A DNA stretch of 4,269 bases, from the IMG/VR virus record IMGVR_UViG_2740892369_000023; one strand, 5' to 3'. The notes under the pieces are model-generated. The model was not told where the DNA came from. It saw nothing but the letters and a program-made list of their open reading frames with translations, and searched no databases. Source of the DNA: a virus (taxonomy: Duplodnaviria; Heunggongvirae; Uroviricota; Caudoviricetes). The position numbers and the translations under genes are program-made. Below, one piece after another: positions 1 through 4,269 of this stretch; position 1 is the stretch's first letter, and every line of letters starts with the position of its first letter.

Positions 1-43
1 TCATCAGATGGCTGCTTAAAAAAAGAACAAATGGTAGTGTCCG

Positions 44-985
44 CTATTGCCAGTACACCTCATTGTCACTGGAAGGCGGGTGGCCAACGCCAATCTTGTA
101 GGCCGGGACACGGAACACCGAACAGACAATTTCAGCCGTCATTTTCAGTTGTTCCACCGTCTGCGCATCCACCGGTGAAAACGTCGTGGGGCTGTATTTT
201 GCCCCGTTGCTCAGTATGGCCGTCTTCCCGGCATTTTCGCCCGTATATCCGCTGTCCCAGTTCCCCTTCAGTTTTTTCGCGTTTTCTTCCGTAATACTGC
301 CGGGGACCTCAATCACGCCTGATGGTCGCCCGCCATTTCTGAAAAAATACGTCGAATTTGCCTGAATATGATGCCCCTGCATGGCGGCCAGTCCTGCGGC
401 ATACACCGGCGGCAGCCCCACAAGCGGATGAAAAAAACAGTTAAAACGGTCGTGGATCACCTCCCGGGCAGGCACCGTCACCGACTCTGTGATCCCACAG
501 TTCCGGTCCGGCGTGATGCGGTAGAACACGTCGCCGTCATCCGCCACCAGAGGTTCAACCCGGTTCCAGTCCAGAATACGCAGTTCTTTGATCTGCCCCC
601 GGGGGTTGCGGATTTTCAGCACCACCGTATTGCCGTGACGCAATTTGGAATTCAGCCACAGTTCAAAAAACTGGATGCGATTCTGCTGCGCATTAGGACG
701 ACGACAGAGACGGGCAGTATCTCCCTGCCGCTTTTCCCGGCGTATTCCCTGTACATCAGTCTGCATCAGGCGAAGCCGCATTTTGGCGATATCCTGGGAT
801 ATCAGCGAAATGCATGAAAACACCGCGTGAAAGGACAAAACGGTTTCCGGATCGGCTTTCACACCCTGCTGCCAGGCACCGGCAAAAGGCTCAGCCACCG
901 CCTGAAACAGGGACCGCCAGCCCACTTCTCTTACGTCACGTCCTGATTTCTGGTTTTTTCGGGTTCGCCGCAAAAGGTTCCACAT
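44..985 (-). CDS. Phage portal protein, HK97 family (possibly C-terminally truncated)
   Basis: 313-codon minus-strand ORF. ATG at 983..985 is preceded by GGAG (994..997) with an 8-nt spacer; an in-frame stop lies upstream at 1001..1003. Portal-family motifs: PETVLSFHAVFSCISLISQDIAKMRLRLMQ, DGDVFYRITPDRNCG, STYFFRNGGRPSGVIEVPGSITEENAKKLKGNWDSGYTGENAGKTAILSNGAKY, and SPVDAQTVEQLKMTAEIVCSVFRVPAYKIGVG. Stop TAG at 44..46, only about 12 residues after the last motif. Confidence 0.85.
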   Translation of the reverse strand: MWNLLRRTRKNQKSGRDVREVGWRSLFQAVAEPFAGAWQQGVKADPETVLSFHAVFSCISLISQDIAKMRLRLMQTDVQGIRREKRQGDTARLCRRPNAQQNRIQFFELWLNSKLRHGNTVVLKIRNPRGQIKELRILDWNRVEPLVADDGDVFYRITPDRNCGITESVTVPAREVIHDRFNCFFHPLVGLPPVYAAGLAAMQGHHIQANSTYFFRNGGRPSGVIEVPGSITEENAKKLKGNWDSGYTGENAGKTAILSNGAKYSPTTFSPVDAQTVEQLKMTAEIVCSVFRVPAYKIGVGHPPSSDNEVYWQ

Positions 986-1152
986 TCGCCATGCTCCGCA
1001 TCACGTTTCTTTTTCTGACCTGCCGGACGTCGCGCTGTGATGTACTCCGCCTTCCCCAGGCGAACCAGCACCTCCGCACACGGCTGTGCCACATCACGGA
1101 TATCCCCGGCCCGGGCATCATGCGTGCCCTGCAGATACTGGATTTTTGCCAT
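931..1152 (-). CDS. Hypothetical small protein (73 aa) in the capsid-portal gap; uncertain
   Basis: Minus-strand ORF MAKIQYLQGTHDARAGDIRDVAQPCAEVLVRLGKAEYITARRPAGQ... with coding-like GC-rich codon choice in its first ~45 codons. It has no convincing Shine-Dalgarno at proper spacing, overlaps the portal start by about 55 nt in another frame, and I recognise no family. It could be a remnant. Confidence 0.2.
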   Translation of the reverse strand: MAKIQYLQGTHDARAGDIRDVAQPCAEVLVRLGKAEYITARRPAGQKKKRDAEHGECGTFCGEPEKTRNQDVT

Positions 1153-1196
1153 CTGTTACTGCGGGAAGCTCGCGCCTCCCGCCCTCCTCATCAGAC

Positions 1197-2558
1197 TCAG
1201 CCACCGGACGCAGTTCCGTAGTTCACACCGGTGATCACCGCCACTGCCGCGGTACGGCGACGACGCCAGTTGATCCAGCGCTCCGCACGGATGGCCACGC
1301 TGCCGGTCTGAAACATGGAGACCAGTTCCACCGGTGACGGTGTGCTGCTGTCGCTGGTCGGTTCAGACTGCATCTCCAGTGACGCTTCACGGGACATATC
1401 CACCGCCACACCGCCGTCATCAGCCAGATAAATATCCGGTGCATTCACCAGTACCAGCTGGTCACCCACATACTGGGAGACAATCACCGGCAGCCCCTGG
1501 AAGGTCCCGCCCAGCAAGGTCATGTCCGGATATTCCTTCTGCCCCAGCGCATTTTTACGCATGGACAGCGCCAGGGCATTGGTGCTGGACATCAGCCAGA
1601 CCGCACCGGTGGGCTGCAGATTTGCCGTCACAAACTGGCCAAACGCGGCCTCGGCATCCGCATCCGGGTTACCGGTTGATGCCGTGCCCTTCACATCATG
1701 GGTGATGGACGCCGGGGAGACATCCGCCACCGCCGCTTTTTTCGGGTCCACAAAGTCTGTGTCCAGACGCGCCACCACCGCTTCCGCCAGCGCATTACGG
1801 ACCAGTGCATCAGCAGCCGGACTGGAAAAACGGATCAATTCTTCCGTCAGTACCGCAATGGCCGACACTTTCGCATGACTGAAGGTGATGGATTCAAAAT
1901 CAAACTTCGTCAGGGGTCTGGCCTTACCCTCACCCACCCAGCCGGCAGCACCACCGGACACCTGGGCATGCACGCGGATATTGAACGGCACCTGACGAAG
2001 TGCAGGGATCCCGCCCTGACCAAATCGCCCGATAATGGTCTGCGGACGCAGGTAATCAATAAAGTCCTGCGCATATTCCTGGTATTCAGACAGGCTGCCT
2101 GCCCACTGCGGGTCCGTGGTGGTCCCTGCCCCCACCGCCGATTTCAGGACATGATGCAGACGGCTGTCATCCGGATACTGACGACGGGCCACTTCCAGGG
2201 CTTCAGAGCGGACACCTTTAGCCGCGGCCAGTGATTTGGCAAAGCGGGCGAAACCAATCCCCTTCTCCAGTTTCTGCTCAACACGGATCACCGGCGCTGA
2301 AGCCACCGTGGCCACATTCCCGTTACCGGCCTGTTTCACCGGCTGTGCCGTGGCGGCCTTACTGGTTTCCAGTTCACGCAGACGCTTCAGGTGCGCATCC
2401 ACCTGACGGATTTCCGCTGCGGTGTTGTCGTAGTGCTCTTCCTCTTCCACATCCAGTGTGCGGCCTTCCTCTGCGGCTTTGTTCATGATCTCCTCAAGGG
2501 AGGCTGCCAGCGCCGCACGCTTGTTTTCAAAACTTTTAATCTGTTCACCAGTATTCAT
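1197..2558 (-). CDS. Possible nested in-frame product: major capsid protein with its delta/scaffold domain, initiated internally at Met193 of the fusion ORF
   Basis: In-frame ATG at 2556..2558 (minus strand) preceded by AGGA (2569..2572, 10-nt spacer), sitting in a local AT-rich patch (2556..2600) that looks like a former intergenic region. The N-terminus MNTGEQIKSFENKRAALAASLEE resembles a capsid-protein delta-domain start. Hypothesis only; the full-length fusion may be the sole product. Confidence 0.3.
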   Translation of the reverse strand: MNTGEQIKSFENKRAALAASLEEIMNKAAEEGRTLDVEEEEHYDNTAAEIRQVDAHLKRLRELETSKAATAQPVKQAGNGNVATVASAPVIRVEQKLEKGIGFARFAKSLAAAKGVRSEALEVARRQYPDDSRLHHVLKSAVGAGTTTDPQWAGSLSEYQEYAQDFIDYLRPQTIIGRFGQGGIPALRQVPFNIRVHAQVSGGAAGWVGEGKARPLTKFDFESITFSHAKVSAIAVLTEELIRFSSPAADALVRNALAEAVVARLDTDFVDPKKAAVADVSPASITHDVKGTASTGNPDADAEAAFGQFVTANLQPTGAVWLMSSTNALALSMRKNALGQKEYPDMTLLGGTFQGLPVIVSQYVGDQLVLVNAPDIYLADDGGVAVDMSREASLEMQSEPTSDSSTPSPVELVSMFQTGSVAIRAERWINWRRRRTAAVAVITGVNYGTASGG

Positions 2559-3134
2559 TGCTGACTTTTCCTTATGAAAAGAGGTTATTGACTGTGCCGA
2601 AGCGCCGGCAGAAGATGCGATTTTCACCACCGGTTTCCGGTTGCCGGACGCGGCAGAAAACGGGCGGTCGTAAGATTTAATGGTCCGGATGGTGCATTCC
2701 GCATTCGCGGGCACGGTGACGGCAGACACCTCCATCAGCTCCCAGCGCAGAAAATGCAGTCCGCCTCCGTCCAGATAAGTGTATTCATGGGGCCGGAAGC
2801 CCACAGAAAGCCCCCTGACCAGCCCGGTCTTAATGGCAGCCCAGGCCTCATCCAGCCGGGCTGCCATCTGGGAGGGCATCCCCGGCTCCGGCTTCACCAG
2901 CATTGCCGTGATTTCCAGCCCTTCCCTGACCCGACGCACCGTACACTGGCCTACAGGGCGGGAATGGTCATGCTGCCAGAGAAACGGGATCGTACTGCCA
3001 AACTCCGCCCCCTCCGGCTCCAGGATGTCACCATCCCGATCCGGAGAAGGCGTTGACGCAATCCCGGTGATCACCCGTTCATCCTCACTGAAGGATTTCA
3101 CCGTCAGCAGGGAACAGGCCCGTTTAAGAGTCAC
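1197..3134 (-). CDS. Prohead maturation protease (HK97 gp4-like, peptidase S78/U35) fused in frame to a scaffold/delta-like linker and an HK97-fold major capsid protein
   Basis: 645-codon minus-strand ORF. Start is GTG at 3132..3134, preceded by AGGAGG (3140..3145) with a 5-nt spacer; no in-frame ATG exists between the terL stop and this GTG. Residues 1-160 carry prohead-protease motifs: GIASTPSPDRDGDIL, WQHDHSRPVG (His codons at 2970..2972 and 2964..2966) and RGLSVGF (Ser codon 2805..2807), then EVSAVTVPANAEC. Residues 193-260 are charged and coiled-coil-like (EQIKSFENKRAALAASLEEIMNKAAEEG ... LKRLRELETSK). Residues 330-645 look like an HK97-type capsid protein (QTIIGRFGQGGIPALRQVPFNIRV, SAIAVLTEELIRFSSPAADALVRNALAEAVVARLDTDFV, and a C-terminal SVAIRAERWINWRRRRTAAVAVITG). 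Stop TGA at 1197..1199. Confidence 0.9.
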   Translation of the reverse strand: MTLKRACSLLTVKSFSEDERVITGIASTPSPDRDGDILEPEGAEFGSTIPFLWQHDHSRPVGQCTVRRVREGLEITAMLVKPEPGMPSQMAARLDEAWAAIKTGLVRGLSVGFRPHEYTYLDGGGLHFLRWELMEVSAVTVPANAECTIRTIKSYDRPFSAASGNRKPVVKIASSAGASAQSITSFHKEKSAMNTGEQIKSFENKRAALAASLEEIMNKAAEEGRTLDVEEEEHYDNTAAEIRQVDAHLKRLRELETSKAATAQPVKQAGNGNVATVASAPVIRVEQKLEKGIGFARFAKSLAAAKGVRSEALEVARRQYPDDSRLHHVLKSAVGAGTTTDPQWAGSLSEYQEYAQDFIDYLRPQTIIGRFGQGGIPALRQVPFNIRVHAQVSGGAAGWVGEGKARPLTKFDFESITFSHAKVSAIAVLTEELIRFSSPAADALVRNALAEAVVARLDTDFVDPKKAAVADVSPASITHDVKGTASTGNPDADAEAAFGQFVTANLQPTGAVWLMSSTNALALSMRKNALGQKEYPDMTLLGGTFQGLPVIVSQYVGDQLVLVNAPDIYLADDGGVAVDMSREASLEMQSEPTSDSSTPSPVELVSMFQTGSVAIRAERWINWRRRRTAAVAVITGVNYGTASGG

Positions 3135-3146
3135 ATCAGCCTCCTG

Positions 3147-3172
3147 AAAATAAAAAAACCGCCGCAGCGGTT
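3147..3172 (-). terminator. Possible weak intrinsic terminator or attenuator between terL and the protease-capsid gene
   Basis: On the minus strand, just after the terL stop: CCGC-TGCG-GCGG (4 bp GC stem, 4 nt loop, extendable by two A-U pairs; plus coordinates 3157..3172) followed immediately by TTTTTTTATTTT (plus 3147..3158). Short stem, so it is weak at best. Confidence 0.3.
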
Positions 3173-3197
3173 CATGATGGTTACAGGGTGAGCAGGG

Positions 3198-4269
3198 TTA
3201 TATGAAAAAAACCTCATACGCTTTCTTTTTCGGTTCCGGATTCAGGGACATCAGGGACACCGCATTGAAGAGCGCCATCAGCGGGTCAATTTTTCCCCGT
3301 CCGCTGGCCTGTTTGGTGATAAGAATGGCGTTACCTTTAGGCTCCACCCGGGCATTACCGACACACCAGGCCATCAGGGGCTGATCACCGTGAATCAGCA
3401 CCCCTTCAGCCAGTTTGCGCTCGGTGGTTTTGATGGCCCCGCCCAGCTTCCAGCCCTGGCTTATCCCCACCACACTCTCATCGGGGATCCCGGCTTCCGC
3501 CAGTGAATCCAGAATCTGCCCCACACCTGACGGGTCAATACCGATATGATCCAGTAACTCAGCCTCATGAATACGACGCACATACTCCGCCACTTCCGCC
3601 GTGTCATCCCCGACCCGACGGACAATCGTCATGTCTCCACAGGCCACAAAATCCTGAAACCGGGATGCCTCACTCTTCCGTCTGACCACCGCGGTTTCAT
3701 GCACCCAGGCATGGCCCCAGCCCAGCCATTCGCGGGTTTCCCTGTCACGGCCAGTCACGTACATTCCCAGCAGATCATCCAGGCCCCCGCCGTCAATCCC
3801 CACCGTCACCACATCAGCGCGCTGCAGGATATCGTCCAGGCTGACGCGCCTGCCCTGCTGCTCCCAGAAATCCGCGCCCGCCCAGCGGTCAGAACGCAGG
3901 GCAAGACCGATTTCCACATTGGCGTGTTTTGACATGACGCCACGAAATGCTTCCTCACCAGCCTCCCGGGCTTTACGGTACTCCCGGTACAGAAAGGCCT
4001 CATCCACCGAATAACCGAGATTCGGGTTAACCATGGCGAGGTTTTCCATCAGCAGGTGAGCCCCGCTTTCCACCATTTCAGGAGGATGCTCAAAAATCAC
4101 CGGCAGAAAGTGCGGATCATGAATTTTGCCGTCACGGACATCCCGGGCATACTGCAGTTTCTGTCTGAACACCCCGGCGGGCGGTTCATTCGACTGGGTG
4201 GTCGTATACACCACAAACCCTTCCGGACGGGAGGCCAGCCCGCCGATGGCTTCACGTAGCATGTCTTCC
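3198..4269 (-). CDS. terL: Phage terminase large subunit, C-terminal portion (partial; 5' end lies beyond the window edge)
   Basis: Minus-strand ORF open to the window edge; the Met at 4262 in the ORF track is only the first in-frame ATG, and the two codons upstream of it (to 4268) are also sense codons. The translation has terminase large-subunit character: an acidic nuclease-domain stretch (VVTVGIDGGGLDDLLGMYVTG, then HIGIDPSGVGQILDSLAEAG) and a typical C-terminal tail (LMAWCVGNARVEPKGNAILITKQASGRGKIDPLMALFNAVSLM). The N-terminal ATPase (Walker A) region is not in the window. Stop codon TAA at 3198..3200. Assignment is by recalled motifs, not a search. Confidence 0.85.
   Translation of the reverse strand, partial: EDMLREAIGGLASRPEGFVVYTTTQSNEPPAGVFRQKLQYARDVRDGKIHDPHFLPVIFEHPPEMVESGAHLLMENLAMVNPNLGYSVDEAFLYREYRKAREAGEEAFRGVMSKHANVEIGLALRSDRWAGADFWEQQGRRVSLDDILQRADVVTVGIDGGGLDDLLGMYVTGRDRETREWLGWGHAWVHETAVVRRKSEASRFQDFVACGDMTIVRRVGDDTAEVAEYVRRIHEAELLDHIGIDPSGVGQILDSLAEAGIPDESVVGISQGWKLGGAIKTTERKLAEGVLIHGDQPLMAWCVGNARVEPKGNAILITKQASGRGKIDPLMALFNAVSLMSLNPEPKKKAYEVFFI

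Follow-up and report, generated by a model that had tools for sequence, protein, structure and literature searches.

A portal gene fragment closed by IS600 in a decayed lambdoid prophage of Escherichia coli

Results

A short portal reading frame in a lambdoid late-gene cluster

The window (the whole 4269-nt stretch of DNA analysed here) holds late genes of a lambdoid, HK97-like prophage that are read from the minus strand (Table 1). Their order is that of the large terminase subunit (TerL), a prohead protease-major capsid fusion, a 73-aa ORF and the portal. This departs from HK97, where the canonical sequence of genes is TerL, portal, protease and capsid, in that the portal gene comes after both the protease-capsid fusion and the 73-aa ORF. 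Proteins of the 645-aa type are named 'ClpP-like prohead protease/major capsid protein fusion protein' by PGAP in some genomes. The 73-aa ORF between the capsid and portal genes belongs to phrog_829 and shares 55 nt with the start of the annotated portal gene; it is conserved, and also annotated, at every related locus that we inspected.

Table 1. Features of the window and of the adjoining insertion element. Positions are those of the window unless a locus (L001, from strain 97-3250) or an accession is given.
Feature	Position	Strand	Basis
IS600, right-hand 62 bp, ending ...CCTCA at 58-62	1..62	plus	PGAP, TG...CA ends, homology limit
IS600, full element, 1264 bp	L001 4799-6062 = NZ_CP027599.1 3301972-3303235		PGAP, ends, inverted repeats
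Last codons of transposase orfB/orfAB (..HQMAA) and TAA (17-19)	1..19	plus	orfB translation ends ...EKYHQMAA
A7 homopolymer, overlapping the transposase stop	18..24	plus	AAAAAAAG at L001 6018, inside IS600
IS600 right terminal inverted repeat (IRR)	36..62	plus	Pair I1, L001 4798-4825 / 6036-6063
Breakpoint between IS600 and portal gene	62..63	.	DNA alignment, flank mapping
Portal ORF, 313 aa	985..44	minus	Pfam Phage_portal, E = 9.9e-61
Portal 5' fragment, 307 codons + 2 nt (pseudogene without the last 146 codons)	63..985	minus	PGAP, Pfam and alignment
73-aa ORF	1152..931	minus	phrog_829, E = 8e-39
Prohead protease/major capsid fusion, 645 aa	3134..1197	minus	Peptidase_S78 aa 48-152, Phage_capsid aa 386-635
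Large terminase gene, 3' part	4262..3198	minus	Window late genes

The initial annotation of this DNA had singled out the portal ORF as stopping abruptly, close to a homopolymer and to the edge of the window, and most of what it described is borne out. The 313-residue frame closes with a TAG at positions 46..44 (CTA at 44..46 on the plus strand), 12 residues separate the stop from the motif FRVPAYKIGVG (the tail of the ORF reads ...FRVPAYKIGVG HPPSSDNEVYWQ, then stop), and beyond the stop the same frame stays open, translating from position 43 down to 2 as RTLPFVLFLSSHLM. The A7 run is present as described, although the T7 that it forms on the coding strand begins about 19 nt past the stop and not about 15 nt, a trivial difference. 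What does not stand is the view that FRVPAYKIGVG is the last conserved motif of the protein, as intact copies continue for 80 further Pfam positions and 146 further residues.

That the portal is abnormally short and lacks its C-terminal part, as had been proposed, is apparent from both close and distant homologues. The window ORF covers positions 2-241 of the 321-position Phage_portal profile (PF04860), as compared to 2-321 in an intact relative, so that it falls short of a full-length match and the early stop is a true truncation. Portal homologues retrieved from a search of 5.8 billion proteins are 444-454 aa long and come from Escherichia, Citrobacter, Klebsiella, Kosakonia, Cronobacter and other genera, and portals of solved structure contain 424-431 residues, which places the 313-aa ORF below the length range of about 390-450 aa. 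The intact portal aligns over residues 41-420 with residues 48-424 of 9lbn (gp1), and over residues 45-400 with residues 53-409 of the HK97 portal (8cez). Thus, compared with HK97-family portals, the N-terminal 308 residues encoded in the window are typical and the intact relative matches nearly end-to-end, whereas what the window carries is the 5' part of such a gene, without the last 146 residues, i.e. a pseudogene and not a variant.

The gene arrangement downstream of the intact portal is annotated inconsistently. In the intact Stx1a phage the 454-aa portal gene is followed by a 407-aa ORF that shares an ATGA stop/start overlap with it (L003 4339-5562 and 5559-6923), and a Pfam search with the 407-aa protein returned no significant domain. 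PHROG 2271 models this pair as a single 859-position 'portal protein', and PGAP calls the pair one 'frameshifted' portal pseudogene in otherwise intact prophages. We considered a portal of 859 aa as the norm and rejected it, as the homologue search gives 444-454 aa across the Enterobacteriaceae; the one-gene treatment of the pair is probably an annotation conflict. The region of L003 that encodes the portal C-terminus and the 407-aa ORF is deleted in the genome from which the window comes.

Window positions 1-62 are the right end of IS600

When window positions 1..1200 were compared by megablast with 5426 complete E. coli genomes, nine chromosomes matched over the full length at 100% identity, and more than 1200 other E. 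coli genomes matched from position 63 onward only. The match likewise begins at position 63 in 180 phage records, most of which are Stx1a- or Stx2-converting phages. DNA alignment with two intact loci places the start of homology exactly at the TTGTCAC that begins at window position 63; in the intact genes this is preceded by ...CTCCAGCGCCTCCACG, a sequence unrelated to window positions 1..62, and no portal similarity was found in any frame within these 62 positions. The entire 4269-nt window is 100% identical in E. coli 97-3250 (NZ_CP027599.1), in which PGAP annotates an "IS3-like element IS600 family transposase" whose coding sequence ends at window position 19 (L001 6019), adjoined by a portal pseudogene ('phage portal protein, incomplete, missing C-terminus'). 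The PGAP annotation, the alignment and the features of the element, described below, together identify window positions 1..62 as the right end of IS600.

IS600, an element of 1264 bp that was originally reported from Shigella sonnei, belongs to the IS3 family, whose members measure ~1.2-1.5 kb, carry terminal inverted repeats with 5'-TG...CA-3' ends, and encode overlapping orfA (helix-turn-helix) and orfB (DDE/rve) frames, which are connected through -1 programmed frameshifting at an A-rich slippery site; a simple insertion of such an element is flanked by a 3-bp direct duplication of its target site. The element next to the portal fragment is 1264 bp long, starts with TGAGG and ends with CCTCA, and is bounded by imperfect terminal inverted repeats of 28 nt that are 71% complementary. 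Its orfA matches HTH_Tnp_1 (1.5e-20) and its orfB matches rve/DDE (3.2e-26), the A7G string AAAAAAAG at L001 5114 near the end of orfA is the predicted frameshift site, and PGAP joins the transposase coding sequence by a predicted 'programmed frameshift'. The copy is 99.9% identical over 1264 bp to one in strain 2014C-3051, and there are thousands of matches to the insertion-element part of the query at places that PGAP annotates as IS600; the name IS600 as used here rests on the PGAP annotation and on the agreement in length with the 1264 bp of IS600. The window copy therefore resembles the IS600 of STEC in length, termini, imperfect repeats, orfA/orfB layout and A7G site, and differs only in being without the 3-bp target-site duplication, since the flanking triplets are TTA on one side and TTG (63-65) on the other. 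The duplication is missing because one flank of IS600 has been deleted, which counts against a simple insertion but not against the identity of the element.

These assignments account for the features that had drawn attention to the portal stop. As the transposase TAA occupies positions 17..19, the A7 run is composed of that stop codon and the A residues that follow it, and both the run and the open frame lie inside IS600 sequence and have no bearing on the portal. The initial annotation had offered an amber nonsense mutation, a frameshift at the A7/T7 run or a sequencing error as causes of the stop, to which an assembly error can be added, each of them acting within an otherwise continuous portal gene. 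All that speaks for these causes comes down to the early TAG, the homopolymer nearby and the frame that is open to the window edge. Against them, positions 1..62 are unlike a portal in any frame and correspond to the end of IS600. The TAG is the wild-type inverted repeat of IS600 read in the portal frame and not an amber mutation, and the supposed site of a frameshift is the stop and 3' end of the transposase gene, with no portal coding in any frame beyond position 62. Nine complete genomes that were assembled independently share the identical junction, which disposes of a sequencing error and on the same ground led us to reject misassembly. In line with an outcome that the initial annotation had named as contrary to its own readings, the gene directly downstream is unrelated, being the IS600 transposase, and has no portal coding potential; the nonsense, frameshift and error readings are thereby excluded, and we consider that there is practically no chance that one of them explains the stop.

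The 313-residue ORF is a chimera of portal and IS600 codons

Protein alignment showed that residues 1-308 of the ORF are 100% identical to the 454-aa portal of the Stx1a phage Stx1_132418 and of strain E2865, and that residues 309-313 (EVYWQ) stand in place of the VEALEQ... sequence with which the intact portal continues. The residues EVYWQ and the TAG that follows them are the right inverted repeat of IS600 (TGAGGTGTACTGGCAATAG) read from the minus strand in the portal frame. At the junction itself, the codon AAC of the intact gene has become AAT, which retains the asparagine (N308). The 313-aa ORF is a chimera comprised of 307 portal codons, the junction asparagine codon and five codons derived from IS600.

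HK97-family portal proteins form a dodecameric ring at a vertex of the capsid, and a naturally short but functional portal of 313 residues had also been put forward for this locus. The ORF runs unbroken from its ATG to its stop and retains 241 of the 321 Pfam positions, as such a protein would. However, homologues from many genera, including close ones, do not end at this point but extend to 444-454 aa, the last five residues are derived from the insertion element, and the ORF is without 80 C-terminal Pfam positions as well as the region that matches the C-terminal third of the solved portals. In addition, the downstream head-tail and tail genes have all been lost. A short functional variant is accordingly a reading to which we attach almost no probability, and judging from its sequence the fragment encoded in the window is unlikely to assemble into the dodecameric ring.

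Late genes are missing on the other side of IS600

In 97-3250, the DNA to the left of IS600 contains no portal sequence. It carries a 5'-truncated DUF1076 (NleG-like) gene, which is an effector-like gene normally located beyond the tail-fibre genes, followed by the NleG, EspW and EspM2 effector genes. The truncated gene is itself a chimeric ORF (L001 4423-4824, minus strand), with a GTG start that lies within the left inverted repeat of IS600.

An intact arrangement is provided by strain 2012C-4606 (L005), in which the effector locus and the head genes are part of one prophage, in the same order and the same orientation, and are separated by the tail-fibre, J, tape-measure, major-tail and head-tail genes and the 3' part of the portal gene. 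Exact mapping of the two flanks of IS600 to this prophage revealed that both are collinear with it and that the breakpoints are 16,628 bp apart, a figure that is approximate for the true ancestor because 2012C-4606 is not the direct one, as its head-side flank is 95.9% identical, its effector-side flank 98.5%, and its chromosomal neighbours differ (potB in 2012C-4606, a ykgJ fragment in 97-3250). Relative to 2012C-4606, the 97-3250 locus has lost the last 146 portal codons, the 407-aa ORF, the head-tail genes and all of the tail genes. No IS600 is present in the 2012C-4606 prophage or in the other intact loci that were compared.

The right junction (62/63) and the left junction occur in the same nine of the 5426 complete E. 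coli genomes and in no others, so a wider distribution of the left junction, sought as a trace of the primary insertion, was not found; two additional two-piece matches in the left-junction search proved to be different sites. The uninterrupted portal site, in turn, is present in 1244 of the 5426 genomes, and a single genome may contain as many as seven copies. Two further junctions are absent from the 5426 complete genomes, namely the portal C-side (...CACGTTG) joined to the left end of IS600, and the right end of IS600 joined to TTA and the N-side of the effector gene; the closest match was an independent insertion 32 bp away, described below. The absence of these ancestral or inversion junctions indicates that the missing part of the portal gene was lost and not moved. 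Taken together, IS600 almost certainly broke the portal gene at 62/63 and marks a prophage deletion of ~16.6 kb.

A simple insertion that split the portal gene, leaving its C-terminal half across the element in an otherwise complete prophage, has a direct precedent. Strain 2014C-3051 (NZ_CP027338.1) carries an independent IS600 (L007 3113-4376) that interrupts the same portal gene 32 bp from the breakpoint described here and has the same orientation; in that strain both portal halves are kept and the element is flanked by a 3-bp CTT duplication, as expected for a simple insertion. At the locus in the window, by contrast, the other side of IS600 in the matching genome is the truncated DUF1076 gene and not the portal, the flanking triplets TTA and TTG differ, and 16,628 bp are missing as compared to the collinear prophage. 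Since the junction between the portal C-side and the left inverted repeat is also absent from the 5426 genomes, a simple insertion is extremely unlikely. The two IS600 insertions only 32 bp apart are a hint of local target preference.

The element could also be the scar of a chromosomal deletion or rearrangement in which IS600 copies from two separate prophages recombined, so that the head region came from one prophage and the effector locus from the other. These genomes contain many IS600 copies, with 12-17 matching places in each of the nine that bear the junction, several similar lambdoid prophages are present, some genomes having as many as seven portal sites, and the identities of the two flanks to the comparator are unequal (95.9% for the head side and 98.5% for the effector side), all of which fit such an exchange. 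However, in an intact prophage the effector locus is followed by the tail, head-tail, portal, capsid and terminase genes, collinearly and in matching orientation, so that an internal deletion requires a single event and is the simpler account. Moreover, the remnant in 97-3250 has one integrase, at its far end, and its effector locus is located at the expected end of the prophage. We therefore consider an origin from two prophages to be unlikely, and prefer a deletion within a single prophage.

Discussion

The stop in the portal ORF is real, and it is an ordinary result of IS-mediated prophage decay. As events of this type are well documented, and as the RefSeq annotation already records the gene as a pseudogene, the finding is already known. 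The short portal is a pseudogene fragment and represents neither a new architecture, nor a suppressor-dependent gene, nor a recoding site. It also carries a practical lesson for annotation: when an ORF ends a few codons past the limit of its homology at the edge of a window, the end of a mobile element should be looked for before point mutations are considered. The clues in this instance lay within 62 nt, in the form of the TG...CA termini and the transposase stop codon.

Two routes could have produced a deletion with IS600 at its border. In the first, the portal gene and the effector gene would each have carried an IS600 copy, the two in direct orientation, and recombination between them would have deleted the interval. 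In the second, a single IS600 copy would bring about a one-step deletion of flanking DNA, as promoted by the IS-excision enhancer in STEC. None of the 5426 complete genomes carries an intermediate, with IS600 in the portal site alone or in the effector gene alone, and the one-step and two-step routes are consequently indistinguishable. IS600 and other IS3-family elements have been amplified in the major STEC serotypes, including O26:H11 (PMC9397093), and a passage of the same article, citing Kusumoto et al. 2011, attributes deletions of IS-flanking regions to the IS-excision enhancer (PMC9397093). An IS-mediated deletion of ~18 kb from the late region has been described for a Stx1a phage of O26:H11 (PMC10042803). 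This literature supports both routes as routine in this host group.

The deletion resembles that of the O26:H11 Stx1a phage (PMC10042803) in its host group, in the lambdoid long-tailed type of phage with HK97-like head genes, in its location in the late region, in its size and in having an IS3-family element at its border. Two features set it apart from other IS-mediated prophage deletions of EHEC and STEC, namely that no stx genes were seen in the inspected region of the 97-3250 remnant, and that the breakpoints, at portal codon 308 and in the DUF1076 gene, are particular to the nine genomes.

The remnant in 97-3250 still has its lysis genes along with TerS, TerL and the protease-capsid gene, and is without complete portal, head-tail and tail genes. 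As a result, it would be incapable of producing virions of its own, and the prophage is best regarded as a defective remnant that would be unable to build its own portal ring or tail. Its type III secretion system (T3SS) effector cargo (EspM2, EspW and NleG-like) is retained, except for the DUF1076 gene that is cut at the breakpoint. For STEC, the locus adds a further case in which IS600 erodes the late region of an effector-carrying lambdoid prophage, where the effectors stay and the head-tail and tail genes go.

The fragment retains its native start and intact upstream genes and has acquired a stop from IS600, and it is conceivable, though very unlikely, that it is expressed as a dominant-negative subunit that poisons assembly of the portal ring of several closely related co-resident lambdoid prophages, Stx phages among them, whose portals are nearly identical to one another. 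If it were, the fragment would modulate the output of phage and Stx-phage particles in the group of nine genomes. Equal genome counts suggest that 97-3250 also carries intact paralogous portal genes. In the surrounding chromosomal region (L006, NZ_CP027599.1 3290000-3339000), the remnant is flanked by more prophage material, with integrase/excisionase and dicB-ydfC genes on one side and an EspK effector gene and Mu-like mom/com genes on the other, which indicates that the region is a cluster of tandem or decayed prophages.
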